A stretch of 64,000 bases of DNA, taken from sequence record MH719082.1, one strand, 5' to 3'. A model generated the notes under the pieces. That model was given only the letters and a program-made list of their open reading frames with translations, had not been told where the DNA came from and did no database searches. This DNA comes from Escherichia phage vB_EcoM_IME392. The translations under genes were made by a program, and so were the position numbers. Each line of letters begins with the position of its first letter. Position 1 is the first letter of the stretch. Of the stretch, positions 1,683 through 29,203 are shown in pieces.

Positions 1683-1713
1683 TTAACAGCCTTTCAAGAC
1701 CCTAAAAGAGCGG
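1683..1713 (-). promoter_or_regulatory. Conserved early/middle promoter-like motif, copy 1 of 15
   Basis: Minus strand reads CCGCTCTTTTAGGGTCTTGAAAGGCTGTTAA followed by AAT (TGTTAAAAT, an extended -10-like element). It lies about 30 nt upstream of the kinase ATG. Confidence 0.6.
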
Positions 1714-1739
1714 ACTAAAAAGGCTGGTGTAAATGTGAA

Positions 1740-2711
1740 CTAGCTAAACTTATACCAGCGAGGTCTCATACGGATCTCGTGATTCAGTTTATGTAGTTTC
1801 GAGAATTCGCAGAATGAGTTGGTGAACATCTGACGAGTATAGAACCGCTCATCCTCCGGCATGAAGTGGAACCATTTCTCCGGCTCCCATGCATACCCGA
1901 AATGAGCACATATCTCTTTGATGTTCTGATACCACCATTCCACGAACATCTGGTAGCCGCAAGGAGGGTTCTGGTCATTAAGCATGTACCATACCCCATC
2001 CTGCGTCCCGGGTCCACATACGATAGCATCGTTATCTGTGTACGCAGTCTCTTTAGAGTAGGACATAGTTGCCCAGCATTGATATGCCATGAACGGACCT
2101 AATCCAGATACCTGTAACAGATGCTCGATGGCCTCGGTAGCGAACGGAGACTTCCATGCCAGTAAGATAGGATCACTGTAGGTCTTCACCAGATAGGCTC
2201 TGGCAGCTACACTGTACTTAATATCCTCTGGACATACTTCATTAGCCATCTTAACTGCTGTGCTAAGGAAGTAGGCATTTGATTGCTGTGGAGCAGTGAA
2301 CGGAGGACCATCCTCATAACGACGTAGCTCTTCACGACCCATGTTATGTATGTCGTCATAGCTCATCTCATAAAGAGGAAGGACTCTGCGGAAGCGATCC
2401 ATATATGAATCACCACGGTTTATCATCTGGAAGAGTACCACGTTAAGCGCCTTACTCTCCCAGCTTAGGGAATCGTTCTCCAGAATGTTCTTGATAGCCC
2501 ATACTGTTTCACGATCGTGCTTACGGAACACGTTAGTGAATTTAAACTTACTAATCCACTTATGTTCTGTCCACGGAGGAGGTAGCTTAAGTATCTCCTT
2601 CTTATAATAAACCTCAGTCCGCTCGCGGTTATACTCCACATACTCACGTAGCTCCTCGGGATTTATCATCCCGAGTAACCCGTCGAAGTGCAAACCTAAC
2701 GGTTTAGACAT
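1740..2711 (-). CDS. Conserved 323-aa protein; tentative aGPT-Pplase-like (alpha-glutamyl/putrescinyl thymine pyrophosphorylase family) DNA hypermodification enzyme
   Basis: Clean ORF with a TAATG overlap to the upstream gene (2709-2713). The segment PPPWTEHKWISKFKFTNVFRKHDRETVW matches what I recall of aGPT-Pplase-type proteins (memory only). It sits between a DNA-glucosyltransferase-like gene and a P-loop kinase plus TS-like pair. Confidence 0.4.
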   Translation of the reverse strand: MSKPLGLHFDGLLGMINPEELREYVEYNRERTEVYYKKEILKLPPPWTEHKWISKFKFTNVFRKHDRETVWAIKNILENDSLSWESKALNVVLFQMINRGDSYMDRFRRVLPLYEMSYDDIHNMGREELRRYEDGPPFTAPQQSNAYFLSTAVKMANEVCPEDIKYSVAARAYLVKTYSDPILLAWKSPFATEAIEHLLQVSGLGPFMAYQCWATMSYSKETAYTDNDAIVCGPGTQDGVWYMLNDQNPPCGYQMFVEWWYQNIKEICAHFGYAWEPEKWFHFMPEDERFYTRQMFTNSFCEFSKLHKLNHEIRMRPRWYKFS

Positions 2712-3790
2712 TAAAGAATACCTTCTTTGGTAAAGTAGTCTATTACTTCATCCTGAAGTTCTTGTGCGTAATCCTTGCGCAGATATAGATTCTCATACTG
2801 ATGTTTCAGCAGAGCATCACGATCTTTCAGTTTCTCTGCAATCTCCGCATTACTGGAGACGATCAGAGGAGCCAGTAGCTCTTCGGGGACGCCGCTCCGG
2901 ATTATTGTTCCAGCAGCATCTTTATCCACCAGCATCAGAGTACCAGAGCTCAGGTATTCGTAATAACGGTTAGGTGGGCTGGTATAGAACGAATTACTGG
3001 AGTTCCAGTCTTCGATAAGCAGTACCGCTGCATATTTAGCCACTTCATCCAGCATCTCTGACAGCTTAAACTTAGGCAGCCAGTTAATCGGAGCAGCAGG
3101 TCCCAGCCACTTACGTTCTTTAGGATCCAGCTCTTCCCAGTTTTCCTGCTCGTAGCCGTCAAATCCTGCAAGACCACCAGTATGTTTAGCGATGGACATC
3201 TGAGCTTTGTAGCTCGGCACCGACATAAACAGTTCCAGACCATCTTGCTGGGAGAAGTACTGAGTGAACTTATGGAAGCGGCCTTCACGAGCAGCACCGT
3301 AATACAGCAGGCTATTGTCCGGCTTATCTGACGATCCATAGCGAGGCTTACGACCAGGAACGTAGGTAAGACGGTTCCAGTTAATGTGATGATAGTTCTC
3401 TTCGCTAGGAGAATACTGATTACCCCAGGAAGTACGTTCAAATGCTGCTACAACTTTAAATACAGTAGCTGCGGTGATGTGTCTCCACTGCGGACCCTGG
3501 ATACGCATCTTAGACGAGTAATCCTGTCCAATCCAGTAGAACTTAGCTCCGACATCTGCCTGGTCTACCCAGAACTTATACATCTCGTCGCGGAACTTAC
3601 AGAAGGTAGGAACACCATTGATGGCGATAATCACGTCATATTTAGTGCCATCTTCCATAGCCTTAACGAACTTAGGAGTATCGTCCAACAGGTCAGCTTG
3701 AAGTCCGTAGGCTAACCAGGAAGCCAGAGTATTACTGGCAATGATGGATTTATCGCTGCATGGCGAAAAGTTAGTTACTGCAATCTTCAT
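2711..3790 (-). CDS. T4 beta-glucosyltransferase-like DNA glycosyltransferase (GT-B, GT63-like)
   Basis: 359 aa versus 351 aa for T4 BGT. Colinear matches to my recollection of T4 BGT: MKIAVTNFS / MKIAIINMG; YDVIIAINGVPTF / YDRLIVVNSSINF; LLYYGAAREGRFHKF / DVIYGGSFRSGQRESK; AAVLLIEDWNSSNSF...TLMLVDKD / IAALIIGDKNYNDNF...AVMLIDEE. Confidence 0.6.
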   Translation of the reverse strand: MKIAVTNFSPCSDKSIIASNTLASWLAYGLQADLLDDTPKFVKAMEDGTKYDVIIAINGVPTFCKFRDEMYKFWVDQADVGAKFYWIGQDYSSKMRIQGPQWRHITAATVFKVVAAFERTSWGNQYSPSEENYHHINWNRLTYVPGRKPRYGSSDKPDNSLLYYGAAREGRFHKFTQYFSQQDGLELFMSVPSYKAQMSIAKHTGGLAGFDGYEQENWEELDPKERKWLGPAAPINWLPKFKLSEMLDEVAKYAAVLLIEDWNSSNSFYTSPPNRYYEYLSSGTLMLVDKDAAGTIIRSGVPEELLAPLIVSSNAEIAEKLKDRDALLKHQYENLYLRKDYAQELQDEVIDYFTKEGIL

Positions 3791-3818
3791 GTTTAATTTC
3801 TCCGTAGGCTGTCACAAT

Positions 3819-3849
3819 TTAACAGCCTTTTAGCTCATCAAAGAAGCGA
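3819..3849 (-). promoter_or_regulatory. Conserved promoter-like motif, copy 2
   Basis: Minus strand reads TCGCTTCTTTGATGAGCTAAAAGGCTGTTAA followed by ATT. The upstream half overlaps the stop of the GT2 gene. It lies about 25 nt before ATG 3790. Confidence 0.55.
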
Positions 3850-4872
3850 GTTAGCTGATGCCCAGCTCAGCCAGTTATCGTTGAGATCGGTCAGGTAGGA
3901 GTAATCCTTATTCAGACCGAATACAGTACGGTTAGTTCCGTCGAACTTCATTATACCAGCGCCAGGAGCTCTGATGATTGCATCTTCCGTAGCCAGACAA
4001 TATTCTTTCAAGTATTCCTGGATGTTGGGACGAATACGACGGAAGGAACTATCTGCCGAGTCATAGTGGAACATATCTGCGCAGTGCCACTGTACGTAGG
4101 ATTTATCCGGACGGCTGAGTAGTTCATTACGGGTAACCATATCTTTAGGAGAATATCCCAGCTTAGCTACAGTGACTTCGTGAATACCTCCACCATTAGA
4201 CGAAGTATCCATCAGCCAGTTTTCGTCCCAGTAGAACGAAGTACCAGTACCAGTTACCTGTCCAACCTTCCAGCCCATCGCCATACCTTTAAACAACAGG
4301 TAGCAATCTTCTCCTACGGTCAACTGTTGGAAGGTTATATCGAACAGCCAGAACATCTTCTCACTGGTCTTGACCATGATACCGAGGTCAGTGGCCGGAG
4401 CAGTGTTATTATGTGACTGACGATCGCATAGTTCAACAATCTTGTAGTTACGATTCTTGAAGCTACGGACGAACGCCATCTCAAACTCAGATCCCTCGAA
4501 GTCTATAACGGAACGGTCCAGATGGAAAATATTATCTGCGAACCAGACATCATCATCCACGAAGTAGCAGATGTCTGGACACCAGTTCTGATCCTCCATT
4601 AAAATCCATGCCTTATCAAGAGCATGAGCTCGGATTCTTCCGATTACCGGATTATCGTACTTAGGACGATGCCAGAAATTAAACTGCTCGTCCCCACCGA
4701 ACTGCTCTTCCAGAACTGCCTTATCTTCTTCGGAGGCATCCTGCATAAAGTAGAAGAAACGATACTCGATAGAGTCGTCAGTCTTCTTAGCATCTTTGAA
4801 CGACTGAATCTGACGGAGTACCGACTTCATACGATGATAGGTTGGGATGATAAAAGCCACTTTGGTAGTCAT
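3838..4872 (-). CDS. Family-2-type (GT-A) glycosyltransferase
   Basis: N-terminal VAFIIPTYHRMKSV (the GT2 signature IPTYNR-like) and a DXD-like YFVDDDVWF. Only 6 nt separate it from the upstream deacetylase gene. Confidence 0.7.
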   Translation of the reverse strand: MTTKVAFIIPTYHRMKSVLRQIQSFKDAKKTDDSIEYRFFYFMQDASEEDKAVLEEQFGGDEQFNFWHRPKYDNPVIGRIRAHALDKAWILMEDQNWCPDICYFVDDDVWFADNIFHLDRSVIDFEGSEFEMAFVRSFKNRNYKIVELCDRQSHNNTAPATDLGIMVKTSEKMFWLFDITFQQLTVGEDCYLLFKGMAMGWKVGQVTGTGTSFYWDENWLMDTSSNGGGIHEVTVAKLGYSPKDMVTRNELLSRPDKSYVQWHCADMFHYDSADSSFRRIRPNIQEYLKEYCLATEDAIIRAPGAGIMKFDGTNRTVFGLNKDYSYLTDLNDNWLSWASANSLL

Positions 4873-4878
4873 ATTTAT

Positions 4879-5490
4879 TTATCCAATTTGACGAACTAAG
4901 CGAAACCCTTCGGCGTACGGCCACTGGGCAGAATATCCACGTAAGGTGGCTAGAGCTAAGATACTCTGGGTATCTCGGTCTGACTTAATCTGGGAGTCGA
5001 ATCGTCCCATAGCCTGGCACTTACACTCAATATCGTCCTTATTCAGACGCTCGAAGTAATTAGGTTCCATCTGACCGAACTGGGTCAGGGACTCGGCATA
5101 CTCATATTCCAGGATAAGCCAGTTATACGCTCGGAGAGCTACACGAGCAGCATGATTAACTAGTTGATGGTCCTGGTGTAGGCTACTGAACGGAATATAG
5201 ACTACATCCGGCCTGATTTTAGCAACATAGTCCGCAATATCCTTAGCCAATTGCGGAATATCCTTCTGAGTCATACCATCGCCTGTGGAGGCATCGTTAC
5301 GCTCCAGGCAATGTACTTCTTTGATATTCGGATAGACACCGAATGCTGCTTCGGCTTCACCACGACGGGTCTCGTCCGGAGCAGTTACTTCGAGGATGAA
5401 AAATTGGTCGTCGCGGAATTTGCTCATAATACCTCCGCAACCCAGAATCTCATCATCGTGATGTGGGCTGATAATCAATCGTGACTTCAT
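4879..5490 (-). CDS. PIG-L/LmbE-family N-acetylglucosaminyl deacetylase
   Basis: LIISPHHDDEILGCGG (PIG-L motif HPDDE) and a later HQDHQLV metal-binding-type motif. RBS GAGGA lies before ATG 5490. Confidence 0.8.
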   Translation of the reverse strand: MKSRLIISPHHDDEILGCGGIMSKFRDDQFFILEVTAPDETRRGEAEAAFGVYPNIKEVHCLERNDASTGDGMTQKDIPQLAKDIADYVAKIRPDVVYIPFSSLHQDHQLVNHAARVALRAYNWLILEYEYAESLTQFGQMEPNYFERLNKDDIECKCQAMGRFDSQIKSDRDTQSILALATLRGYSAQWPYAEGFRLVRQIG

Positions 5491-5505: not shown

Positions 5506-5541
5506 CACAAAAATGGGGTTAGGCCGTAGAGACCTAACCCC
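5506..5541 (-). terminator. Rho-independent terminator-like hairpin
   Basis: 9-bp stem ggggttagg / cctaacccc (5515-5523 / 5533-5541), followed on the minus strand by TTTTT (plus-strand aaaaa 5509-5513). It shares the 17-nt string ctacacaaaaatggggt with the terminator at 13341-13357. Confidence 0.6.
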
Positions 5542-5557
5542 GTACGCCTCTGACACC

Positions 5558-5588
5558 TTAACAGCCTTTTAGGTCATCAAACAGGAGG
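5558..5588 (-). promoter_or_regulatory. Conserved promoter-like motif, copy 3
   Basis: Minus strand reads CCTCCTGTTTGATGACCTAAAAGGCTGTTAA followed by GGT. It overlaps the 3' end of the transporter gene and lies upstream of the 5515-5541 hairpin. Confidence 0.5.
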
Positions 5589-6959
5589 AGTTTCCTTAGC
5601 CAAGAATACTTTAGGTACAAAGATCTTGAGGAACCCGAATAGAATACACAATACCCCAATCAGTACCGGAACAGCCGATACAGCTACCAGAGTCTTCGTT
5701 ACAGTTACTACGTCACCACCTGCCCAGTTAAGTGCAGCAGCAACTACACCCATGCTTACAATCCAGAATACACGAGTTCTAGGAGCGGTCATGGACTCTA
5801 CCGTAATACCTGCTGAGTCATGACCTGTAATAAAGAACAGAATCACAGACACGAGGGTAATTACTGAGAATATCCATCCGCCTGGGAAATTAGCCAGAAG
5901 CTGGAAGATATCCTGAGCACCATGTTGCAAACCGGCTACACCGAATACGGTAAACCATACGTTACTGATAATGGTAGGGAACAGTACACATCCCAGGATC
6001 AGTTCGCGAATAGTACGGCCGTAAGAGATACGTGCCACAAACGCTCCGACGAATAATGCCCAACCTACCCAGGCTGCATAGTAAGCATAAGGCCAGCTAG
6101 CCAGCCATTGCTTCTCTTCAGCAGTACTGCCAATGTTTACCGACATAGGAATAATCTGGAGCAGATAGCTGCCAGAATAGGTGATGGTCTTCCAGAGGTA
6201 TTCAAAGAATGTACCACTTACAGCAACGAATGCCATAATAGATAGAGCTACGATTACATTATATCTGGATAACCACTTAACCCCACGATCGACACCAGTT
6301 ACGGCACTAAGTACAGTGCCCAGAGTCAGGAGTGCGATAATGGTGTAAGGACCAACATCCACACCAAGGAACTCTTTAAATCCAGAACTGATCGGGCCTA
6401 CTGCGTAGACGAACGACAGGGTTAAGCCTATGATGGTCGAGAAGAGTAAGCTTATCGTATTAAGGTTATTCAGAGTTCGGGACTTGAATAACTGATTAAG
6501 CGGACGGTCTTCACCACGTACATGCAGTAAGTACCCGAATGCCACCCCTACGACTGCATACACAGCCCATGCATTAAGTCCCCAGTCAAAGAAGGTAGTT
6601 ACCATATTCTGACGTTCGGACATACCCTCCTGATGATGGTACATAGGTTCGAGTACGCCATAATAAATCATGGATACACCCATACCGGTACTAAACATCA
6701 TAGAGTAATAGGTAAAGCGATTGTATTTCGGAGTACCTTTACCCAGCTTAATGTTACCATGTTTGCTGAATACAAAGAATGCCAGGAACGCCAGGAAGAT
6801 CAGCGAAGACCAGGTAAATATGAATCCATACTGAGATATAAATACAGACTTACTCCAGTCCATTACAGCACCAAACTGGGTGGGAGCAAACATAATGGCG
6901 AGTACAATACCCACCGTTACCAGCACCGTCCCCCAGGTAACTACCTTTGAATCGGACAT
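5577..6959 (-). CDS. BCCT-family (betaine/carnitine/choline-type) secondary transporter
   Basis: 460 aa, hydrophobic throughout with about 11-12 predicted helices by eye. FSKHGNIKLGKGTPKYNRFTYYSMMFSTGMGVSMIYYGVLEP matches the BCCT N-terminal block (RLG...F..SWFAMLFAAGMGIGL.FWGVAEP). WPYAYYAAWVGWALFVGAFVARISYGRTIRE matches the BCCT signature W.....W..W.PFVG.FIARIS.GRTIRE. Confidence 0.75.
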   Translation of the reverse strand: MSDSKVVTWGTVLVTVGIVLAIMFAPTQFGAVMDWSKSVFISQYGFIFTWSSLIFLAFLAFFVFSKHGNIKLGKGTPKYNRFTYYSMMFSTGMGVSMIYYGVLEPMYHHQEGMSERQNMVTTFFDWGLNAWAVYAVVGVAFGYLLHVRGEDRPLNQLFKSRTLNNLNTISLLFSTIIGLTLSFVYAVGPISSGFKEFLGVDVGPYTIIALLTLGTVLSAVTGVDRGVKWLSRYNVIVALSIMAFVAVSGTFFEYLWKTITYSGSYLLQIIPMSVNIGSTAEEKQWLASWPYAYYAAWVGWALFVGAFVARISYGRTIRELILGCVLFPTIISNVWFTVFGVAGLQHGAQDIFQLLANFPGGWIFSVITLVSVILFFITGHDSAGITVESMTAPRTRVFWIVSMGVVAAALNWAGGDVVTVTKTLVAVSAVPVLIGVLCILFGFLKIFVPKVFLAKETPPV

Positions 6960-7871: not shown

Positions 7872-7899
7872 TTTAATTCCTCAGTTAACTTGTACAACC

Positions 7900-7930
7900 T
7901 AACAGCCTTTCGAACCCTAAAAAGAGCGAA
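7900..7930 (-). promoter_or_regulatory. Conserved promoter-like motif, copy 4 (variant CTAACAG)
   Basis: Minus strand reads TCGCTCTTTTTAGGGTTCGAAAGGCTGTTAG followed by GTT. It lies about 28 nt upstream of ATG 7871. Confidence 0.5.
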
Positions 7931-7965
7931 ATAATAGATATCTAGCCATCTCGTAAGATGGCTAT
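7931..7965 (-). terminator. Terminator-like hairpin after the methyltransferase gene
   Basis: 9-bp stem tagccatct / agatggcta (7944-7952 / 7957-7965) with a 4-nt loop. The minus-strand downstream tract is T-rich but interrupted (GATATCTATTATTT). Confidence 0.45.
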
Positions 7966-8713: not shown

Positions 8714-8739
8714 GTTCTGTCCTCATTAGTTTCGACACC

Positions 8740-8770
8740 TTAACAGCCTTTGGAGCCGTAAAAGAAGTGG
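8740..8770 (-). promoter_or_regulatory. Conserved promoter-like motif, copy 5
   Basis: Minus strand reads CCACTTCTTTTACGGCTCCAAAGGCTGTTAA followed by GGT. It sits between the 8785-8812 terminator and ATG 8713. Confidence 0.6.
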
Positions 8771-8784
8771 TATTGTACATATTC

Positions 8785-8812
8785 AAAAATTAGGGTGGCC
8801 GAAGCCACCCTA
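8785..8812 (-). terminator. Rho-independent terminator (UUCG loop)
   Basis: Stem tagggtggc / gccacccta (8791-8799 / 8804-8812). The loop cgaa is UUCG on the minus strand. A T5 run follows on the minus strand (plus-strand aaaaa 8785-8789). Confidence 0.75.
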
Positions 8813-12053: not shown

Positions 12054-12089
12054 AATTTCTCCGGTCAGGTTTAAATAAGCTCACACAGT

Positions 12090-12120
12090 TTAACAGCCTT
12101 TGGAGGCCTCAAAGGAGCGG
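12090..12120 (-). promoter_or_regulatory. Conserved promoter-like motif, copy 6
   Basis: Minus strand reads CCGCTCCTTTGAGGCCTCCAAAGGCTGTTAA followed by ACT. It lies inside the last 10 codons of ORF 12090-12752 and about 35 nt before ATG 12053. Confidence 0.55.
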
Positions 12121-12752
12121 TTCACGAACAGGACTAAATCCTCTACTCTGGACTTATCTACCCACTCTGTTCTTCCTGGTAAGGACCTATTAGACTCGGA
12201 GAAGAAAGATAATCTCACTTTTGATTCTAAATCCACTCCCTCTTCTTTAGGCATCTCGATTAAGATTAGCGGGGTCATACCGATGCCTAATCCATCTAAT
12301 CTTCTTTCTATATTTGAAGTAATCCCATATTTAGCATTTCCAGATTGGTCCAATACGATATAAAAGACCACCTTACCTTCTGGAATGGTAGATATCGCTA
12401 GGTTCTTAATCACAGAGTTAGCGTATTCAGGATTCAACCATCGTTTATGATTTGAAGAGGATATCACTTTAGACATCTTCTTCTGGTAGTTCTCATCTTC
12501 CCACATTTTAATGTTGCGATTAGTCATGGAAACAGACCTAGCCCTGGTGGCGCATTCTGATCTTCCACATGTAGGACGATAGCCCTTAATCACGGATTTA
12601 AAGGAGCAGGGTTTTCCACATGAACATATTTTTACAGGAAAGAATTTTAAGTAATATTCATGCGGAGTTAAGCCATGAGATTTGGCATGGGAGGGAAATG
12701 CCTGGCCTCTTACTTCGGCAGAGCATATTCTACATTTATGATTCATAATCAT
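12090..12752 (-). CDS. Free-standing homing-endonuclease-like protein (N-terminal Zn-ribbon, DNA-binding repeats, C-terminal T5orf172/GIY-YIG-like domain)
   Basis: CRICSAEV...SHAKSHGLTPHEYY; repeats W.D.NY.KKMS / RWLNPEY; C-terminal VVFYIVLDQSGNAKYGITSNIERRL. Visibly more AT-rich than the flanking topoisomerase genes. Confidence 0.5.
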   Translation of the reverse strand: MIMNHKCRICSAEVRGQAFPSHAKSHGLTPHEYYLKFFPVKICSCGKPCSFKSVIKGYRPTCGRSECATRARSVSMTNRNIKMWEDENYQKKMSKVISSSNHKRWLNPEYANSVIKNLAISTIPEGKVVFYIVLDQSGNAKYGITSNIERRLDGLGIGMTPLILIEMPKEEGVDLESKVRLSFFSESNRSLPGRTEWVDKSRVEDLVLFVNRSFEASKGC

Positions 12753-12990: not shown

Positions 12991-13226
12991 GCTTCACCTA
13001 CCATTTTCAGGAAGGTGTCTACCATAATCGGGTCGAAGCTATCGACATCGGCAGTATGCATCAGGGCGGAGAATAATGAGTTAGCCCAGTGCTCCGTAAC
13101 TCCGTCTTTACCTTCGAGAATTACGCAGTACTGATCTTTGGAAGGATGGTACTGAATCTTAGCAACATTGCGATTCGAGGTCAGGACCAAAATCTTGGTT
13201 CCCGAGATAGTGAAGATTCTAGACAT
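12987..13226 (-). CDS. Hypothetical 79-aa protein
   Basis: I place the start at ATG 13226 (MSRIFTISG). The track's longer start at 13301 would run into the terminator/promoter region. Confidence 0.45.
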   Translation of the reverse strand: MSRIFTISGTKILVLTSNRNVAKIQYHPSKDQYCVILEGKDGVTEHWANSLFSALMHTADVDSFDPIMVDTFLKMVGEA

Positions 13227-13345
13227 ATAATAATCCCAAATTAGAAGATCCGCAGCGGGAACGCCCCGCCACCCAAAAGAACGGGCTTTAGGAGGTCCCA
13301 TAAATCGTTTTATTTTTCATTATTTGAAAAATAAAATAATCTACA

Positions 13346-13370
13346 CAAAAATGGGGTCCGAAGACCCCAT
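13346..13370 (-). terminator. Rho-independent terminator (UUCG loop)
   Basis: Stem atggggtc / gaccccat (13351-13358 / 13363-13370), loop cgaa, then a T5 run on the minus strand. It lies 4 nt after the stop of the Mre11-Rad50 gene. Confidence 0.75.
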
Positions 13371-18056: not shown

Positions 18057-18117
18057 CTTTGTGATCTCTATTTAAACAATGTTTCAACAATCATAATCAG
18101 AGTTGCCCTCTGACACC

Positions 18118-18148
18118 TTAACAGCCTTTCGACCCTCCAAAAGAGCGG
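18118..18148 (-). promoter_or_regulatory. Conserved promoter-like motif, copy 7
   Basis: Minus strand reads CCGCTCTTTTGGAGGGTCGAAAGGCTGTTAA followed by GGTGTCAGAGG, the same downstream string as copy 3. It lies about 60 nt before ATG 18056. Confidence 0.6.
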
Positions 18149-18152
18149 CGGA

Positions 18153-22779: not shown

Positions 22780-22781
22780 AA

Positions 22782-23300
22782 TTACTCCTCTTTACTCTGG
22801 TAAAGTAACTGGATATCTGCCGAGTTCTCGACATATTCCTGAGCTATTCGAATAGCTCTAACGACCATAGCCTTCTCTCCCCAGCTTAGGAATTCTGGGG
22901 TAGCAGCCATCTTAACTACTAACTCGCGAGAAAGATCTTCGATACACTTAATCTTGTTCGAGACCTTAGGGAACGCAAGTCTATTATTAATAGTTATACG
23001 ATCAGCAGGAATCTGGGTGAAGGTCTCGCTGAATAGTCTATCGAAATCTCCGATATTTAATTCAGTGAAATAACCCTTACCCTCTTCTGTATCGAATATA
23101 CCATGAACAACTACTTCTTGTCGAATAGATACATTTAGTAAGTACTTCGAGTTCAACAAGATAACGTAGATGCTCGAATAGCTCCGAAGATCTCGTTTCC
23201 ATGCTGATAGGGACTCAGTAGGTGATCCCTTGTATTCTACTCCCGAATTCAGAAGCATCTTACAAAATGGGTCTAGGCTGTTAATTACTACAGTACTCAT
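22782..23300 (-). CDS. Hypothetical 172-aa protein
   Basis: I place the start at ATG 23300 (GAGGAGAATACA-ATG). The track's GTG at 23321 would sit on the promoter -10 region. Confidence 0.55.
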   Translation of the reverse strand: MSTVVINSLDPFCKMLLNSGVEYKGSPTESLSAWKRDLRSYSSIYVILLNSKYLLNVSIRQEVVVHGIFDTEEGKGYFTELNIGDFDRLFSETFTQIPADRITINNRLAFPKVSNKIKCIEDLSRELVVKMAATPEFLSWGEKAMVVRAIRIAQEYVENSADIQLLYQSKEE

Positions 23301-23324
23301 TGTATTCTCCTCACGTGCCACAGT

Positions 23325-23355
23325 TTAACAGCCTTTCGACGCTAATTAAAGGTGG
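23325..23355 (-). promoter_or_regulatory. Conserved promoter-like motif, copy 8
   Basis: Minus strand reads CCACCTTTAATTAGCGTCGAAAGGCTGTTAA followed by ACT. It lies 24 nt before ATG 23300. Confidence 0.55.
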
Positions 23356-23657
23356 TCTTTAACAGTTCCCAGGATAGCTTCTCTGGTGTGGATTAGGCCA
23401 GATCGATTAATCTCTACTTTGGTGGTAGTCACCATTTCGAATACTTCCAGCTCAATACCAGGATGAGCCATGCATGTATGAATCAATACAGACAGAGCAT
23501 CATCATAGCTGGGATAACCAGTGGCATATTTATGATTGTCGTTCCACAGGCGGTCGGTTGCATGCCTGCGTTCGCTGATGTAAGATATCTTACCTTCTTT
23601 CATCCGGCCTACATAATACTTAGCTTCGGAATTATCCGAAATATGTAACGTTTCCAT
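23346..23657 (-). CDS. Hypothetical 103-aa protein
   Basis: Start placed at ATG 23657 (AGGAGAAATT-ATG, METLHISDN...). Confidence 0.5.
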   Translation of the reverse strand: METLHISDNSEAKYYVGRMKEGKISYISERRHATDRLWNDNHKYATGYPSYDDALSVLIHTCMAHPGIELEVFEMVTTTKVEINRSGLIHTREAILGTVKDHL

Positions 23658-23701
23658 AATTTCTCCTAATGGGGAGTTTTTACCTCCCCCGAGCAAAGGT
23701 A

Positions 23702-23947
23702 TTAGAATGGGCTATGACGAGATTCCGTTACTTGCAGACCGGAGAGGATCTGACCGATAAAGTCATAGCTTACACCATCTTCTACAGATGTAATCTTAAC
23801 TTCATTGGTATTTTCGATCTTCTGGCCAGTTGCCAGTAATCCGTTAGGGAGGACGACGCCTACGAATTCACGAGTATCGACTGGCTTACGAAAGTGCTTC
23901 TTAGCTGGTTTCTTATGTCTCATGAACGGATTGTTATTATAAGGCAT
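23702..23947 (-). CDS. Hypothetical 81-aa basic protein
   Basis: ORF in an operon; overlaps the upstream ORF by 11 nt. Confidence 0.45.
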   Translation of the reverse strand: MPYNNNPFMRHKKPAKKHFRKPVDTREFVGVVLPNGLLATGQKIENTNEVKITSVEDGVSYDFIGQILSGLQVTESRHSPF

Positions 23948-24254
23948 TGTCTGATTCCCCTTTTATAGTATGATCTTTGAAAACTCTTAAACTATACGGA
24001 TTCTCTATTTCTTCGAACTGTAGACCATCAAAGCCATGTATCATATTCACATAGTTCATACTATACATAGTAATTCTGATTTGCCAGATCGTCGAATTAG
24101 AGGACTTACGAAATACTCTACACGGCTCACTAACTACAGCACCCTTAATCTTCCCAAGTTCCCTGAGAATACCAGTTATGTCCTCGATCTCGCAGAACGA
24201 TTGAAAGATGCGGGATGGACATCGTCTTATGGGACTAACGTCTGAACCATACAT
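23937..24254 (-). CDS. Hypothetical 105-aa protein
   Basis: First ORF downstream of motif copy 9. Confidence 0.45.
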   Translation of the reverse strand: MYGSDVSPIRRCPSRIFQSFCEIEDITGILRELGKIKGAVVSEPCRVFRKSSNSTIWQIRITMYSMNYVNMIHGFDGLQFEEIENPYSLRVFKDHTIKGESDNAL

Positions 24255-24310
24255 AATTTTACATAATAGGTAAGTTGGACACAGAAGGACGCAGTCACGC
24301 CTCCACCGTT

Positions 24311-24341
24311 TTAACAGCCTTTTAGGTCATTAAAACGGCGG
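24311..24341 (-). promoter_or_regulatory. Conserved promoter-like motif, copy 9
   Basis: Minus strand reads CCGCCGTTTTAATGACCTAAAAGGCTGTTAA followed by AAC. Confidence 0.55.
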
Positions 24342-24348
24342 AGTTCAA

Positions 24349-25140
24349 TCAGTACCGAGGATCAGTATCCTGATAGTCGCGAATTAGGTCATAGACGAGC
24401 ACATCCAGACGAGTAGCATCTTCACGTTTCATGCGGGTAGGTCTGTACATATGGATACATACACAATGCTTAGACCAGACCTTAGCAGTCTGACGCTCCG
24501 TAAGTTCTTTACGGTCGATAATGTACTTCTCGAATGCGTGATAAGAGATAGGCTTTGATACTTCGACATGCTGGCACATATCGAGGAACTGCGGGTAGTC
24601 GTCAGTTAAGAAGCGACTGAATACGTCCTGGTAATAAGAGTAGTTAGGGAATTTACCACCCTGCTCCAGAGATAACGCATGAGTCTCGATCTCCTTCAAC
24701 ATCAGAGCCATAAATTCCTGATTATTGCTGGGAGAGGTCCACATGTTTATCTCGCAGTAATCTAACCGAGGGGAATAAACACGTACCTGAGTCTCGTGAG
24801 GAGTATACGTTTCGTGAGGGCTTCTGATAAAGAGAGTATCAGCATCTACATAGGAGTAACCACGAAGATCCATCATTACCTGAATCTTGAGTCGCAGATA
24901 GTCACATACAGAGGCCATCTTAGCCTTAGTTTTCAGGATATTATACGCCTTCTCCATAATAGGATCTCTGGCGAATAAATCCTGGATCATAACGCAACGG
25001 CAACCTTCGATAATATTCTCTTCGTTATCGATCACCAGTACATGATCATTAGGTCCGTATTTCTGTAAGGACTTAATGCATTCCCGAACATGGATAGGCA
25101 TTTTGGGTCCTACCCAAAGCTGGAAATAATTCTGACTCAT
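24349..25140 (-). CDS. GT32-like (DXD sugar-binding) glycosyltransferase
   Basis: FQLWVGPKMP (GT32 N-terminal IWIG..lP), ASVCDYLRLKI (SD.lRy block), YSYVDADTLF (DxD). RBS GAGGT lies before ATG 25140. Confidence 0.55.
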   Translation of the reverse strand: MSQNYFQLWVGPKMPIHVRECIKSLQKYGPNDHVLVIDNEENIIEGCRCVMIQDLFARDPIMEKAYNILKTKAKMASVCDYLRLKIQVMMDLRGYSYVDADTLFIRSPHETYTPHETQVRVYSPRLDYCEINMWTSPSNNQEFMALMLKEIETHALSLEQGGKFPNYSYYQDVFSRFLTDDYPQFLDMCQHVEVSKPISYHAFEKYIIDRKELTERQTAKVWSKHCVCIHMYRPTRMKREDATRLDVLVYDLIRDYQDTDPRY

Positions 25141-25775
25141 AGTTACCTCTATGTTATTTATTTTAAACTGGATAGGGACTAATAAAGTAAATAGTAATTA
25201 AATACTTATTAATCTTCCTCTTATCTAATGCTAAGGGAAGCGTACTCGAGGAGTACAGAAGCTTAGCGAAGAGCGGAGTAACCATTTGATTTAAACAGTC
25301 ACCGTAGAGAGCGAAGGAGTCGCGCCCGCTTGAGGCGGCGCGACCTCCGCTTCACCAATCCTACCGGATGGACGCCTGCGACCACCCGAGCCTACCCCTG
25401 CCTCACTCACTAAAGCCACTTCGGGCTTTACCTCGTTCCGCTACGCGATACGCAGGCAGATAGCTACACTAAGTCCCCTGGAGATGGCTAGTAAGTATCC
25501 GTTACCAGACCATGTCCAACCTAACATTGACGAAGCCAGGGACTAGGCACTCCTCGCCAATAAGCTACATTAGGATTTATGTCCGTATTTCGAAGATAGG
25601 CCGATCGGGGAGACTATGCATTCATCTCTGCTCAACCAGGAAGCACCGATTAGGGTAAATACCCAAACTATCTTCTTAATGTCACTCCTCCCAGACCGCT
25701 TCGGGACTTAGCTTAAGTCTTATCCGAATAATCTGGCATCTACGACGGACCGTAGTGTATGGAGCGTACTGCAAT
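25141..25775 (-). ncRNA. Candidate ~630-nt structured non-coding RNA or giant 5' leader
   Basis: Immediately downstream (minus strand) of motif copy 10. No ORF >=60 aa in any frame. Locally GC-rich: 43/60 GC at 25321-25380 versus 23/60 in the neighbouring coding line 25021-25080. Multiple hairpins and long-range complementarities (see findings). Confidence 0.35.
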
Positions 25776-25806
25776 TTAACAGCCTTTTGACTCATCAAAA
25801 GAGCGT
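25776..25806 (-). promoter_or_regulatory. Conserved promoter-like motif, copy 10
   Basis: Minus strand reads ACGCTCTTTTGATGAGTCAAAAGGCTGTTAA followed by ATT. It contains a perfect 7-bp dyad CTTTTGA/TCAAAAG. Confidence 0.55.
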
Positions 25807-25923
25807 AATTAGGGCCCGATTATTTCACTTAGCTTCCATCCGTTCGGGCCAACACGGATCGTACATGACGTTACCGTCGTTTCAAGTCACTCGGATTATT
25901 AGTTCCCGGTGCTCATATAAAGA

Positions 25924-25952
25924 TGGTGCCACGTAGGGAATCGAACCCTATA
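25924..25952 (-). pseudogene. tRNA-like 3' fragment (T-arm + acceptor 3' strand + CCA)
   Basis: Minus strand reads TAGGGTTCGATTCCCTACGTGGCACCA, a canonical T-arm. No matching 5' acceptor strand, D-arm or 7-nt anticodon loop could be folded from the upstream ~100 nt. Confidence 0.3.
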
Positions 25953-26065
25953 TCAGGTAAACGTCTAGCCGTAGACTGCTGAGTGCCCTCAGCTACCCTA
26001 TCACTTAACCGAACCATCGGCAAATCTTTCACAGATACTTACACGTGATTTTCTCTGATCGGATC

Positions 26066-26092
26066 TGGTGATTCCTCGGAGTCGAACCGAGG
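26066..26092 (-). pseudogene. tRNA-like 3' fragment (T-arm + ACCA-like end)
   Basis: Minus strand reads CCTCGGTTCGACTCCGAGGAATCACCA. It starts only about 12 nt after the CCA of tRNA-Met, so there is no room for a 5' half. Confidence 0.3.
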
Positions 26093-26104
26093 AGTGGCAT
26101 AATA

Positions 26105-26180
26105 TGGTGGTCCATACTGGTTTCGAACCAGTGACCAAGCGATTATGAGTCGCCTGCTCTCACCACTGAGCTAATGGACC
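26105..26180 (-). tRNA. tRNA with CAU anticodon (elongator Met, or Ile2 if lysidinylated)
   Basis: Hand-folded cloverleaf: GGTCCAT-TA-GCTC-AGTGGTGA-GAGC-A-GGCGA-CTCATAA-TCGCT-TGGTC-ACTGG-TTCGAAA-CCAGT-ATGGACC-A-CCA. All stems are perfect. G1-C72, so not an initiator. Confidence 0.9.
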
Positions 26181-26649
26181 GAACTAGATTGAGCGATAGG
26201 CTATGGAGTACCTTACCATCGGGCGTCTTTCGCTAAATAGCCCATCATGGGCTACCGCAGGGGCATGACACCTATCGCTCAAATTGGTCGGGATCGTGGC
26301 CCACGTCGGAGGATTTGCCAAACTCCCCATTATCATAGCCTAAGCTATCCAGACGGCCGTAACTACCCTGCTCCGGTACATGCGATAATGGGGACGTATC
26401 CAAAGATGTGGAGATCCCGTTAAAATATCTTAAGCTTCTCGCTATGTGTGTCCTACACTCTACCCTTGCGGGGTACCGGAGGATGAATCCGAACTTCCTG
26501 CGACCACACACGGAGGCCCTTGCAGACGTGCTTTATTGCGCTCATCCTGGCATAGCGAGAACTTAAGATATCTATTGATGCGCACCAGATAAGTATTTCC
26601 CAAGCCATGAACTTAATCTGGGATCTTGACCTATCCAGTGCGACTTATG
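26181..26649 (-). ncRNA. 469-nt structured inter-tRNA spacer (processing substrate or independent ncRNA)
   Basis: 12-bp perfect long-range helix 26189-26200 / 26271-26282. 21-bp helix with one bulged C, 26425-26446 / 26551-26571. Nested hairpins such as tagccca-tca-tgggcta at 26238-26254. Confidence 0.35.
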
Positions 26650-26725
26650 TGGTACTCCCTACTGGATTCGAACCAGTGACCGTCGGTTTAGAAGACCGAT
26701 GCTCTATCCTCTGAGCTAAGGGAGC
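26650..26725 (-). tRNA. tRNA-Arg (UCU)
   Basis: Hand-folded cloverleaf: GCTCCCT-TA-GCTC-AGAGGATA-GAGC-A-TCGGT-CTTCTAA-ACCGA-CGGTC-ACTGG-TTCGAAT-CCAGT-AGGGAGT-A-CCA. G1-U72 wobble, other stems perfect. Reads the rare AGA codon. Confidence 0.9.
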
Positions 26726-26735
26726 TTAACTTTAG

Positions 26736-26802
26736 GATGACCTCTTAGCTTACCATCGCGAAAGCTACATGGAGTGTAGTTAACGTGAACTAAGAGGTCA
26801 TC
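26736..26802 (-). other. 13-bp-stem hairpin immediately 5' of tRNA-Arg
   Basis: gatgacctcttag (26736-26748) pairs with ctaagaggtcatc (26790-26802). The loop holds two small hairpins and shares cttaccatcg and atggagt strings with the element 5' of tRNA-Met. Confidence 0.5.
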
Positions 26803-26812
26803 ATAAAATCAG

Positions 26813-26905
26813 TTACTGACGAATTATACTTTCCCAACCATCCACATATACTGCGTTGGCTATGTAAAGAATGCAGAACAAGCCAACGATTAAAGGATTA
26901 ATCAT
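26813..26905 (-). CDS. Possible 30-aa hydrophobic micro-protein
   Basis: Below the track cutoff. Minus strand reads GGAGAAGTACA-ATG ATT AAT CCT..., giving MINPLIVGLFCILYIANAVYVDGWESIIRQ*. Single TM-like segment with a good SD. Confidence 0.3.
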   Translation of the reverse strand: MINPLIVGLFCILYIANAVYVDGWESIIRQ

Positions 26906-27302
26906 TGTACTTCTCCATTTAATTAAGTTACCTGCTTACTGTTACAGGGACGCCGTTCGTCGCGCCAGATTACCAATTGGCGTATTAAGCCAATCTCGCC
27001 AACCGCGTAACGCCATTGGCTGGTATCACATAGGCTTGTAGCCCTCAGTCAACCTATCCTGAGGATGAAGATCAGATACTCTCTAACGGCGGGATTGATA
27101 GTCCCAGAGTACGATCTCTTTGCCATTCTCGTATGACCTAGGAGACGACTGCCCTGGTTAAGGAGACCAGACAGCTGATATGGTTTAGTTTATTTTTAAT
27201 TTGAGTCCCACTCATACCTTACAGACTCAAGCACTGCAGACCACCATGAAGCCGACTCGTACGCTAACAGTCGACACCACGGATCCATGAAACTCCAACA
27301 AT

Positions 27303-27333
27303 TTAACAGCCTTTCGACTCATCAAAAGAGTGT
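27303..27333 (-). promoter_or_regulatory. Conserved promoter-like motif, copy 11
   Basis: Minus strand reads ACACTCTTTTGATGAGTCGAAAGGCTGTTAA followed by ATT. No ORF follows for about 400 nt. Confidence 0.5.
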
Positions 27334-27485
27334 TAAATTGTCCGCTCCCTATCACCGAGCACTGTGATGATGGGAAAATAGGGAGCGAAGCGATTCCTAA
27401 GTTTTATCTCTTCTCTAAGTGATTAACCGTTACATACGATGTACCTTCTCGAAAGAATTAAGCCGGTATTGGCACTTCAGACACT

Positions 27486-27516
27486 TTAACAGCCTTTCGA
27501 CCGTACAAAAGAGCGG
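27486..27516 (-). promoter_or_regulatory. Conserved promoter-like motif, copy 12
   Basis: Minus strand reads CCGCTCTTTTGTACGGTCGAAAGGCTGTTAA followed by AGT. The 31-mer is identical to copy 15. Confidence 0.5.
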
Positions 27517-27521
27517 CGTAA

Positions 27522-28064
27522 TTAGACGCTCGCCTCAGGCACTTTAACAGCCTTTGGACGTGTAAAAAGAGCGGGATTATACCATTCTGGGGTACGATAG
27601 AAAGAGATCTTACGACCCTCTTTCTTCCAGAAGTAGAATTTATCGTTGAGGTAGTTACGGTACTTCTCGTAGACTGTCTCACCAGGAGCACCTGATACAC
27701 ATGCATACGGAGTCATATCGGTCTCTGGACCTACTACCAGATTTTTAGGTAGTGCCACAAGACGGGATAAAATTTCTTCGGTTGCATGGAGCCGTCCGGT
27801 ACGTTCAAAGAATAGCATGCATAAATAGCTTGCCAAGTCACGAACGAAGTTGTAGTTACCTGACGATTCACGAACCCACTTAGCACACGGATGATTAACA
27901 TGCGTCTGCTTATAAATACCCTCGATAGCGTTTTCGCCATCCAGAACATGATGAGCAGTAGATAATAACTGAGCACACTCAATAATCATTTTATTCTGGT
28001 GCATAGGCATACAGTGGTCCATAGCACATTCTAACGCATCTTCGTGAGTACGGAAAATATTCAC
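27522..28064 (-). CDS. Conserved hypothetical 180-aa protein (THVNHPCAKW motif)
   Basis: GTG start with AGGAGTAATTATT upstream. The KMIIECAQLLSTAHH...YKQTHVNHPCAKWVRES block is one I recall seeing in unrelated phages, function unknown. The last ~17 codons overlap motif copy 13. Confidence 0.55.
   Translation of the reverse strand: MNIFRTHEDALECAMDHCMPMHQNKMIIECAQLLSTAHHVLDGENAIEGIYKQTHVNHPCAKWVRESSGNYNFVRDLASYLCMLFFERTGRLHATEEILSRLVALPKNLVVGPETDMTPYACVSGAPGETVYEKYRNYLNDKFYFWKKEGRKISFYRTPEWYNPALFTRPKAVKVPEASV
27544..27574 (-). promoter_or_regulatory. Conserved promoter-like motif, copy 13
   Basis: Minus strand reads CCGCTCTTTTTACACGTCCAAAGGCTGTTAA followed by AGT. It lies 58 nt upstream of copy 12. 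Confidence 0.5.
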
Positions 28065-28148
28065 AATAATTACTCCTAACGTGGTTGCTTACTTTAAGTC
28101 TCTCGTGAAAGATTTAGAGTAAGCATCGGAGGAATTACCTCCGACACT

Positions 28149-28179
28149 TTAACAGCCTTTCGACGGCACAAAAGAGCGG
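28149..28179 (-). promoter_or_regulatory. Conserved promoter-like motif, copy 14
   Basis: Minus strand reads CCGCTCTTTTGTGCCGTCGAAAGGCTGTTAA followed by AGTGT, then the hairpin CGGAGG-TAATT-CCTCCG. Confidence 0.55.
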
Positions 28180-28181
28180 TT

Positions 28182-28343
28182 TTAAATTTTACATGCATCT
28201 CCGCAGTCGTCGTCACCAGGCTGGCTGATAACTTCGTCTACGTTAACCATGCGATCTTCTACACGACGAGATGCCTCGTCTAATTCTTCCTGAGATGGGA
28301 GATTGGAGAAATCCAATTCTTCACCAGATTTATTGCCTGACAT
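28182..28343 (-). CDS. Small acidic 53-aa protein
   Basis: Start placed at ATG 28343 (GGAGTGATT-ATG; MSGNKSGEELDF...DDDCGDACKI). The track start at 28388 lies inside the upstream gene. Confidence 0.45.
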   Translation of the reverse strand: MSGNKSGEELDFSNLPSQEELDEASRRVEDRMVNVDEVISQPGDDDCGDACKI

Positions 28344-28812
28344 AATCACTCCACACGTTAATAACTTCTTTACCACAGGATTTAGCATAGGCTACACAGT
28401 TACCTGTGCCACCCGAACTACCATCCCATAGGGCTAATCCCATCTGACTACGGTTAACCATGTATCGGTTACGCACCATCATCTTGAAGGAATCATACCC
28501 AGGCTCGGACACTATAATTGTGCGACGACTTTTTCTGCATAGCTCAGTCCATTTTTCTGTATCTGCAGATCGCCACATTTTGGGTTGGTCAATCATAGGG
28601 ATTGTTGCAAAGTATGGTATTCCGAGATTGGCACATGCCTGAGCACATGCCATATCCCATCCTAACGCCATACCTATAAACCAGCAGTCCACGCTATTCT
28701 TAGCTGTAAGCTCCTGGATGTGATGTTCGGCAAACTGGGTAAGATGATCATGGCTAAAGTTATCCCATCCACCCAGCTTATCTGGCCTATGACCAGTCAC
28801 GAACATAAACAT
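28330..28812 (-). CDS. SLOG-superfamily protein of the YpsA/DUF1273 type
   Basis: Colinear with my recollection of B. subtilis YpsA: VTGHRPDKLG / ITGYKPFELG; IGMALGWDMACAQAC / ISGQLGVELWAAEAA; TIPMIDQPKMW / ITPFYEQEKNW; GLALWDGSSGGTGNCV / LLLLYDPEKEGSPKYM. Confidence 0.65.
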   Translation of the reverse strand: MFMFVTGHRPDKLGGWDNFSHDHLTQFAEHHIQELTAKNSVDCWFIGMALGWDMACAQACANLGIPYFATIPMIDQPKMWRSADTEKWTELCRKSRRTIIVSEPGYDSFKMMVRNRYMVNRSQMGLALWDGSSGGTGNCVAYAKSCGKEVINVWSDYVRQ

Positions 28813-29153
28813 TACTTCTTGCCCATCTTAGCCTGCATAGCACGGACGGTATCCATGGCGCTGGCCAATTTGGCTGAAGTATCCTGCGGACCATCTTCTT
28901 CTAGCTGTTTCTTAAGGGACTCCATACGATCAGTAGTACCCTTAGTATCCATCTCGATTAATTCGTTGATGGTCGAACCACCCACGTTAGGTAACTTACC
29001 CAGCTGAGTAAGATCCTTAACTTCTGGGATTTTAACATGAAGTTGAATAGACTGGGATGCTCTCGCGAACGACCCAGCACGACGATTGTCTCCTACCTTA
29101 TTGTACAGGGAAGATAGGTTACCCAGGAACGTAATGATATCAGCAGTTTTCAT
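28812..29153 (-). CDS. Stand-alone DNA polymerase beta N-terminal (8-kDa, HhH, dRP-lyase-type) domain protein
   Basis: Start placed at ATG 29153 (GGAGGAATCAAAT-ATG). IITFLGNLSSLYNKVGDNRRAGSFARASQSIQ...LGKLPNVGGSTINELIEMDTKG parallels the Pol beta segment ITDMLTELANFEKNV...YNAYRKAASVIAK...[22 protein letters not shown]. Confidence 0.55.
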   Translation of the reverse strand: MKTADIITFLGNLSSLYNKVGDNRRAGSFARASQSIQLHVKIPEVKDLTQLGKLPNVGGSTINELIEMDTKGTTDRMESLKKQLEEDGPQDTSAKLASAMDTVRAMQAKMGKK

Positions 29154-29172
29154 ATTTGATTCCTCCAACAAG

Positions 29173-29203
29173 TTAACAGCCTTTCGACCGTACAAAAGAG
29201 CGG
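29173..29203 (-). promoter_or_regulatory. Conserved promoter-like motif, copy 15 (first of the leftward transcription arm)
   Basis: Minus strand reads CCGCTCTTTTGTACGGTCGAAAGGCTGTTAA followed by CTT. It lies 20 nt before ATG 29153. Confidence 0.6.

Follow-up and report, generated by a model that had tools for sequence, protein, structure and literature searches.

A predicted promoter motif of the early/middle arm of Escherichia phage vB_EcoM_IME392 and related phages

We have analysed a 64,000-nucleotide stretch of DNA from Escherichia phage vB_EcoM_IME392 (sequence record MH719082.1), hereafter the window, which carries fifteen minus-strand copies of a repeated motif that we named class A. 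The copies precede genes of the early/middle arm, run in the direction of these genes and are retained at the same places in related phages. We consider, with moderate confidence, that each class A copy is a promoter heading one transcription unit of this arm and that it is read by a specificity determined by the phage. The promoter consensus is new, and the kind of element is ordinary. The window showed 94.5% identity to Escherichia phage EP_H11 (111,373 bp) and belongs to a myovirus. EP_H11 is listed with the hypermodified-thymidine phages of the RP13/YerA41/SP-15 group (PMC12686479; bioRxiv 10.1101/2025.03.26.645540).

Register, position and conservation of the class A motif

When up to two mismatches to AAAGGCTGTTAAA were allowed, 18 matches were found in the window against 1.38 expected, and none of 100 shuffles equalled that count. 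Fifteen of these matches, every one on the minus strand and together spanning 1672-29207, are the copies reported in the first-pass annotation, whose start coordinates agree with ours within 1-3 nt. The remaining three are chance or partial matches, at 15306 in a coding sequence and at 27325 and 29215 on the plus strand. A position weight matrix (PWM) was trained on 25 non-orthologous copies, comprising the 15 of the window and 10 from the rest of EP_H11. Scanning the window with this matrix returned exactly 15 sites, all on the minus strand with 46-65 bits; the range of 8-46 bits was empty, and no further site exceeded 6 bits. On the plus strand, the highest score was 5.8 bits, which confirms that the motif is absent from the late plus-strand module, as had been stated earlier. 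The motif occurs 24 times in EP_H11, always on the coding strand of the 75-kb early/middle arm and never in the late arm.

Anchored on the core and counted from the first A of AAAGG, every copy has the same fixed register, with a consensus of ~46 nt: aa..CCGCtcTTTt.a.g.gtcgAAAGGCTGTTAAa.TGT.ggAg. The spacer of six or seven nucleotides in the earlier description was thus not borne out, and its length of 31 nt was too short. AAAGGCTGTTA (positions 0-10) and G+15 do not vary among the 25 copies; A+11 and T+14 are each shared by 24 of them and A+20 by 20. Conservation extends from two A's at -23/-22 to GGAG at +18..+21, and the core, which includes GGC, has a GC content of ~45%. The identical 31-mer CCGCTCTTTTGTACGGTCGAAAGGCTGTTAA is indeed present in copy 12 (core start 27497) and copy 15 (core start 29184). 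No match to the motif was found in 5,426 E. coli genomes, and a host origin was therefore ruled out.

Equal occurrence in coding regions or on both strands, which the first-pass annotation had named as an argument against promoters, was not seen in the window: every copy is on the minus strand, lies between genes or overlaps only the last codons of the upstream gene, and matches the genes in orientation. For the majority of copies, 18-35 nt separate the end of the core from an ATG that has a Shine-Dalgarno sequence. The arm is opened by the two strongest copies (61 and 65 bits), and in EP_H11 the last class A copy, at 55406, is ~4.2 kb short of the convergent arm end at 59624. The copy before the first gene and the distance of the last copy from the arm end argue against a terminator or a processing site. 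The TG-n-TAAAnT geometry, followed 6-7 nt on by a conserved purine (A+20), fits an initiation site. Because the copies are intergenic, oriented with the genes and near their starts, and because the arm begins with a copy but does not end with one and the late arm lacks the motif, we consider a promoter to be the best reading. Accordingly, the promoter-like behaviour suggested earlier for the early/middle arm is supported by position, orientation and polarity. The order of terminator, motif and gene was observed at 8812 and 7964 and, for the class B motif described below, at 13371.

Relatives were reached by looking in Logan, ENA and JGI assemblies for homologues of the GyrB-like protein and of beta'; scans of IMG/VR for a 14-mer of the motif, for a gapped pattern and for helicase relatives gave chance single matches or nothing. 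Related phages, in which the first-pass annotation had proposed to look for the motif, retain it upstream of the same genes. This was observed in the metagenomic contigs L140, L141/L147, L142 and L143, in Acinetobacter phage Ab1-TPeters and in Ralstonia phage RP13. They have in common a co-evolving core, AAA(S)(S)CT(K)T(Y)A...TG, which drifts by lineage through the forms AAAGGCTGTTAAA, AAAGGCTGTCAA, AAACCCTGTTAGGG, AAACCCTTTTAAT, AAAGCTGTTTAAA and AGACCTTGTAAG. L143 and RP13 conserve the core but have a degenerate upstream box.

In the proposed mechanism, recognition would occur through a fixed-register signal of ~46 bp. The invariant core AAAGGCTGTTAAAnTGT, at about -21 to -5, would be the primary element, and the box CCGCTCTTTT, at about -40 to -31, would be a lineage-specific auxiliary element. 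The predicted start is at the conserved GGAG, on an A or G 6-7 nt past TAAAnT. The reader may be the phage's own bacterial-type RNA polymerase (RNAP) with a split beta' subunit and a specificity factor, possibly delivered by the virion, or it may be the host polymerase redirected by a phage factor. A signal that acts on the DNA apart from transcription, such as strand-specific nick sites of the T5/phiKMV type or replication or packaging signals, would also explain the strict strand bias and the high invariance of the sequence. We regard this as very remote, considering that the copies lie between genes at a short, regular distance from the start codon, are oriented with the genes and are retained at orthologous gene starts in the relatives.

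The dyad with compensating pairs described in the first-pass annotation exists, although the effect is weak. The arms able to pair are GC(T)CTTTT(G) and (C)GAAAGGC; standard pairs were present in 83.2% of cells compared with 78.8% after shuffling, and none of 500 shuffles was as high. The innermost pair varies among GC, AU and GU and is unpaired in 14 of 35 sequences. The mean minimum free energy was -5.5 kcal/mol compared with -3.8 kcal/mol for shuffled sequences (z -0.84), the same small hairpin being formed by 17 of the 25 copies and another fold by eight, and RNAalifold gave no consensus structure on the copies. In Ab1-TPeters, an inverted repeat is found elsewhere (AACTCAA/TTGAGTT, upstream of the core) and is not homologous. 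We therefore treat the dyad as real but weak and as a secondary or accidental feature, and the results lend little weight to the hairpin or the dimeric factor considered earlier.

On the one hand, the motif could be bound by a dimeric regulator of the phage that acts as repressor or activator, which would recognise the dyad GCTCTTT...AAAGGC and overlap promoters of which only the downstream part is essential. Pairing above the shuffles, the alternation of the innermost pair and a C-G to G-C switch in L142 agree with this possibility. It is nevertheless improbable, since the centres of the half-sites are ~17-18 bp apart and thus on different helix faces, the inner pair is unpaired in 40% of the copies, the dyad of Ab1-TPeters is not homologous, and in L143 and RP13 the core persists beside a degenerate upstream box. 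On the other hand, the hairpin and GCUGUUAAA could act at the RNA level, as a site of processing, as a signal to pause or terminate, or as a read-through leader. The small hairpin of the 17 copies, a strand-specific fold owing to G-U pairs and the intergenic location would suit such an element, which we find slightly harder still to credit: the stability is weak, a consensus structure and a U-run are absent, the copy before the first gene of the arm has nothing to process, the last copy of EP_H11 stands well before the arm end, and the relatives conserve the sequence and not the pairing. An intrinsic terminator was rejected, because the weak hairpin is followed by GCUGUUAAA and not by a U-run and because a terminator scan skips the copies.

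Stem-loops directly downstream of class A were not general (mean z -0.14). Reverse-complement cores, TTAACAGCCT, occur only shortly downstream of a few class A copies, at 23284 and 3808-3830 in the window, 32906-32946 in EP_H11, and 7597 and 11678 in L140. At EP_H11 32906, the core and its reverse complement form a terminator with an 11-bp stem and a T-run, and the predicted start lies in its loop; therefore, only read-through RNA would terminate. After copy 3, a strong intrinsic terminator (5515-5541, minus strand; 11-bp stem, ATTTTTG) gives a promoter-then-terminator order, and it is retained in L140 with a compensatory A-to-G change.

Sigma-70 and the specificity of recognition

In this phage, TGTTAAAnT is found in 15 of 15 copies, with TG at -15/-14, T-12, A-11, T-7 and a conserved purine 6-7 nt downstream. 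The extended -10 proposed in the first-pass annotation therefore fits here, but the sigma-70 features are broken at the orthologous sites of the relatives. L143 has CTTTTAA and no TG, and in Ab1-TPeters (CTGTTTAAAGT) the TG is displaced by one. In L141, which has TGTCAAC, TGTCAAT and TGTCAGG, T-12 is changed to C, and in L142 the centre of the -10 is GGG (TAGGGT). What is conserved, co-varying by lineage, is AAA..CT.T.A...TG with an invariant G-6. The spacer bases AAAGGC and G-6 are positions that sigma-70 does not read. Because these best-kept positions are unread by sigma-70 while its hallmarks are not conserved, the pattern is the one expected of a phage-encoded specificity determinant. On sequence grounds, the conserved and lineage-co-varying core together with the broken sigma-70 features suggests a phage-determined recognition factor or polymerase.

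No TTGACA-like -35 hexamer is present 16-18 bp before the -10; CTTTTG or TCTTTT stands there, and the earlier remark that the upstream box does not resemble TTGACA was correct. Canonical sigma-70 sites in the arm are at or below chance (24 compared with 24.7 expected, 30 with 27.3, and 16 with 26.7), and consensus scans miss the copies. The copies may still be ordinary extended -10 promoters of host sigma-70, in which the extra sequence is a UP-type or activator-type site or is inherited and the phage polymerase serves late genes only. We consider this unlikely. The TGnTAAAnT geometry is correct and the purine is at the expected distance, A-11 and T-7 are retained in all class A lineages, the beta' genes need a transcriber that is present at time zero, and the late arm shows no virion RNAP genes. 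However, TG is lost or shifted and T-12 and the -10 centre are altered in the lineages named above, the invariant AAAGGC (-21 to -16) and G-6 lie outside the sigma-70 contacts, the related class B core GTTCTTTTGG lacks A-11, and neither a -35 element nor an excess of consensus sites was found.

A sigma-54 promoter, which has GG at -24 and GC at -12 (TGGCACG-N4-TTGCW), was also rejected, since AGGCTGT-TAAA-GTGT has TGT for TGC and thus no -12 GC, and GG is changed to CC in L142 and L143. The "sigma-70 promoters" annotated in YerA41 showed no common motif.

Class B, the polymerase genes and known promoter systems

Class B was first noticed as a repeated intergenic motif in L147 and was later located in this phage. 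It consists of AAATAAAACGAtTTaTG-N9-AAAGCCCGTTCTTTTGG, then a GC hairpin and then TCTAATTTGGRG. The class B core shares AAAG.C.GTT....TG with class A and has C in place of A-11, and judging from this resemblance it may be a second, related promoter-like motif. A likeness between the class A upstream box and the class B core (13/17) was discarded because it is lost in other lineages. RP13 has class B in syntenic positions, and there, as in EP_H11, it is found directly before both beta' genes and after SbcC(D). In EP_H11, a terminator lies between the class A copy at 22480 and the class B copies before the beta' genes.

The region 22571-32897 of the EP_H11 record, outside the window, encodes a split beta' of the bacterial type (beta'N and beta'C). 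It carries a Zn finger, RVDYSGRSV, NRAPSLHR and the DVDGD active site, and showed ~30% identity to bacterial RpoC over the full length. The annotation of RP13 likewise holds beta' pieces only. YerA41 is a distant relative whose RNAP subunits are made early and were also detected in virions (PMC7354516). In RNAP-encoding jumbo phages, a conserved motif before early operons is the promoter of the virion RNAP, and late promoters are cryptic (PMC7598289). The pattern of this phage, with an early motif and undetected late promoters, is the same.

Several points weigh against promoters of phage-determined specificity. In this phage the motif is a textbook extended -10 that unaided host sigma-70 could read, and the T-12/A-11/T-7 skeleton persists in most lineages. 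We infer the promoter activity and the start site, and likewise the polymerase that reads the motif. The strong terminator immediately after copy 3 is odd for a host-type polymerase. A beta subunit was not found by Pfam, PHROG, PDB phmmer, tblastn with the YerA41 beta, a six-frame motif scan or a homologue search. Pfam domains of sigma, MotA or AsiA were absent from 10 small early proteins of the window, 10 open reading frames (ORFs) of the RNAP region and 53 further ORFs of EP_H11, a search that divergent factors would escape, and a gp68/gp226-like factor was not found. Lastly, the polymerase genes themselves have class B copies and a class A copy (EP_H11 22480) in front of them. Since both classes are upstream of these genes, one class or both must be read by a polymerase that is already there at time zero. 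This could be the host enzyme, possibly aided by an injected factor, or a phage enzyme that is packaged.

More broadly, classes A and B could be the two types of promoter used by a hitherto uncharacterised transcription system of non-jumbo hypermodified-thymidine phages with a split-beta' polymerase, an idea that we put forward tentatively and hold to be unlikely. In such a system, the beta subunit would either come from the host or have diverged beyond recognition, the enzyme would be delivered by the virion or built on host subunits, and promoters on modified DNA would be read via a factor other than a detectable sigma. No transcription studies of the EP_H11, IME392, RP13 or Ab1-TPeters phages were found in the literature searched.

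Among known systems, the early promoters of jumbo-phage virion RNAPs are similar in that a conserved, phage-specific motif is detectable bioinformatically before early operons and late promoters are undetectable by sequence, as they are here. Both also have split subunits, of the beta/beta' type in jumbo phages (PMC7598289). However, the jumbo-phage motifs are ~10 nt long, AT-rich and centred at -10, whereas class A is ~46 nt long, bipartite and not AT-rich. At 111 kb, this phage is not jumbo; unlike jumbo phages it encodes a single set of beta', which resembles bacterial RpoC much more closely, and no beta was detected. The late promoter of the AR9 non-virion RNAP reads 5'-AACA-N6-TA/G(+1) on the non-template strand (PMC7598289). 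It was rejected as a model, because the core CTGTTAAAnTGT has no AACA at -11 to -8.

The E. coli sigma-70 extended -10 (TGnTATAAT) resembles class A of this phage in TG at -15/-14, T-12, A-11, T-7, the lack of a usable -35 and a purine at the expected start. Class A differs in its twelve invariant bases, which reach upstream into the spacer, and in the invariant G-6; in addition, TG and T-12 are not conserved in the relatives and the sister class B lacks A-11. The middle promoters of T4 combine a MotA box centred at -30, (a/t)(a/t)(a/t)TGCTTtA, with a sigma-70 -10, sigma being appropriated by MotA and AsiA. They are likewise scattered before replication and nucleotide-metabolism genes and have a -10-like element with a phage-specific box in place of the -35. 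Unlike in T4, the class A box CCGCTCTTTT is not the MotA box, and the strongest conservation is beside the -10 and not in the box. Accordingly, the analogy with the MotA box drawn in the first-pass annotation may hold in outline, but the box differs and no MotA, AsiA or sigma domain was found among the proteins scanned.

Promoters of T7-type class II/III also have a long, near-invariant consensus before each unit, and they too form two related classes with a common core, as A and B do. However, they are read by a single-subunit polymerase, which is lacking in this genome, and the sequences are unrelated. The promoter-early stem-loop (PeSL) cassettes of T4-type phages are repeated intergenic promoter cassettes, and the stem-loop after some class A copies and the conserved leader hairpin of class B recall them; PeSLs differ in that they carry sigma-70 early promoters, whereas stem-loops after class A are not general. 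The hairpin promoters of the N4 virion RNAP share with class A an inverted repeat in a conserved early promoter, and both phages encode or depend on DNA topology enzymes. In N4, the hairpins consist of a stable stem of 5-7 bp and a loop of 3 nt, are centred near -12 and serve a single-subunit polymerase. In contrast, the class A dyad is weak, has a loop of 6-10 nt near -27, forms no such hairpin in 8 of the 25 copies, gives no consensus structure and is not conserved in the relatives.

Gene context and implications

The motif copies, their surroundings and the forms of the motif in relatives are collected in Table 1. In the window, the late arm (plus strand, 35 kb) codes for terminase, protease, sheath, baseplate, fibres and tailspike, and the minus-strand arm codes for a type IIA topoisomerase, SbcCD, helicases, RusA, a 5'-3' exonuclease, 5-hmdU DNA kinase, PIG-L, a BCCT transporter and two tRNAs. 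The complete early/middle arm of the phage, 75 kb, holds replication, nucleotide-metabolism, thymidine-hypermodification and tRNA genes.

Table 1. Class A and class B copies and motif forms in relatives. Class A copies are supported by the PWM score of each, and entries are on the minus strand unless stated.
Feature	Coordinates	PWM bits	Surroundings or sequence
Class A copy 1	1672..1717	53.0	5' of AAA_28 gene (ATG ~1650)
Class A copy 2	3808..3853	46.2	Begins at stop codon of gene 3838-4872; 27 nt 5' of gene 2711-3790
Class A copy 3	5547..5592	47.2	Overlaps stop codon of BCCT transporter; then terminator 5515-5541, then PIG-L 4879-5490; L140 keeps this arrangement
Class A copy 4	7888..7933	47.1	5' of gene 6963-7871; preceded by hairpin 7943-7964
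Class A copy 5	8729..8774	52.9	5' of methyltransferase gene 7973-8713; preceded by terminator hairpin 8791-8812
Class A copy 6	12079..12124	54.8	35 nt 5' of GyrB-like topoisomerase gene 10068-12053; orthologous position occupied in L140, L141 and L142
Class A copy 7	18107..18152	59.2	5' of gene 17046-18056
Class A copy 8	23314..23359	46.1	5' of gene 22782-~23300 and helicase operon; reverse-complement core TTAACAGCCT ~40 nt downstream, at 23284
Class A copy 9	24300..24345	47.5	5' of small genes from 23937-24254 on
Class A copy 10	25765..25810	51.9	Past tRNA-Met; ~640 nt 5' of glycosyltransferase-like gene 24349-25140
Class A copy 11	27292..27337	55.0	~580 nt 5' of tRNA-Arg (26650-26725)
Class A copy 12	27475..27520	59.6	31-mer same as in copy 15
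Class A copy 13	27533..27578	53.9	In tandem with copy 12, 58 nt apart; heads largely non-coding, tRNA-containing stretch
Class A copy 14	28138..28183	64.9	Strongest copy; 5' of gene 27522-28064 (phrog_624, "DNA binding protein", PHROG)
Class A copy 15	29162..29207	61.4	Core AAAGGCTGTTAAC at 29184-29172; divergent region, first element of early arm
First early-arm gene downstream of copy 15	ATG 29153		HHH_8 protein (Pfam)
Degenerate motif-like sequence	29215..29229 (+)	at most 5.8 (plus strand)	AAAGACTCTTAAAAT; head of late arm; 2-mismatch match
Class B cassette, sole window copy	13226..13345		AT-rich AAATAAAACGATTTATG, 9 nt, AAAGCCCGTTCTTTTGG, GC hairpin, TCTAATTTGGGA, ATG; preceded by terminator 13350-13371, following SbcCD
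Class B, EP_H11 (six copies)	record 2259, 25015, 25371, 28839, 33054, 36552		Two directly before beta' genes
Class B, L147	6419, 9195, 12328, 13573		
Class B, RP13 locus L148	4101-4244, 8188-8286, 12891-13270		
Motif form, L140			GyrB identity 76%; CGCTTCTTTGATAC.CTAAAAGGCTGTTAA
Motif form, L141/L147			GyrB identity 56%; CTCTTTAATTAATCTAAAAGGCTGTCAAnnTGTTGG
Motif form, L142			GyrB identity 45%; CGACGTTT-N7-tCGAAACCCTGTTAGGGTGG
Motif form, L143			GyrB identity 44%; tCGAAACCCTTTTAAnnTGTTGG
Motif form, Acinetobacter phage Ab1-TPeters (109.7 kb)			Same architecture; GAAACTC-AAAATTGAnnTC-AAAAGCTGTTTAAAGTGT; enriched on early-arm strand
Motif form, Ralstonia phage RP13			AGACCTTGTAAG

At the head of the late arm, the sequence at 29215..29229 (+) may, very tentatively, be a late-arm leader promoter. 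A degenerate class-A-like sequence, AAAGACTCTTAAAATTATG, is present there, and similar sequences are found in the divergent regions of L143 and Ab1-TPeters. The late-arm intergenic regions 29215-29245, 58740-58760 and 59455-59470 (+) have (A/T)TTATG(T) in common, which recalls the late TATG element of phiKZ, with weak statistics.

A full-length BCCT (betaine/carnitine/choline) transporter gene (5577-6959, minus strand, E 1e-92) lies inside the thymidine-hypermodification cluster. Its neighbours include PIG-L (4879-5490), 5-hmdU DNA kinase, the gene at 1740-2711 and nearby genes, and in relatives the cluster additionally holds a PS (phosphatidylserine) decarboxylase and an ATP-grasp enzyme. The transporter is kept in EP_H11 and L140 and may import a substrate for base modification. 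The two tRNAs of the window are Met-CAT (26105-26180) and Arg-TCT (26650-26725). They are the only genes of a ~2.3-kb minus-strand stretch (25140-27520) without a convincing ORF, in which four class A copies are found. The ~580 nt between copy 11 and tRNA-Arg gave no Rfam match and could be a source of unknown RNAs.

Three program-made ORFs, 12090-12752, 28812-29195 and 12987-13301 (minus strand), reach into or across motifs; one ends on the TAA of the core and two begin 5' of the predicted promoter. The true starts of such ORFs probably lie further downstream, for example at ATG 29153 and ATG 13226. The annotation of EP_H11 places a coding sequence of 37 amino acids over one motif copy. Early ORFs of EP_H11 (record 32054-32560 and others) include an Acb1-like anti-CBASS domain (E 3e-06), a PinA-like Lon inhibitor, NADAR, a PolX thumb/HHH_8 protein, and an RNase H beside beta'N. 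The AlphaFold model of the phrog_624 protein downstream of copy 14 had a pLDDT (predicted local distance difference test) of 46.

In summary, a precise consensus for the predicted promoter, its variants in seven lineages and a second class before the polymerase genes make the regulatory program of these phages directly testable. They open the questions of which polymerase reads which class, whether modified T is needed and whether the polymerase is injected. Additionally, the motif would offer orthogonal promoter parts and correct several annotated gene starts.

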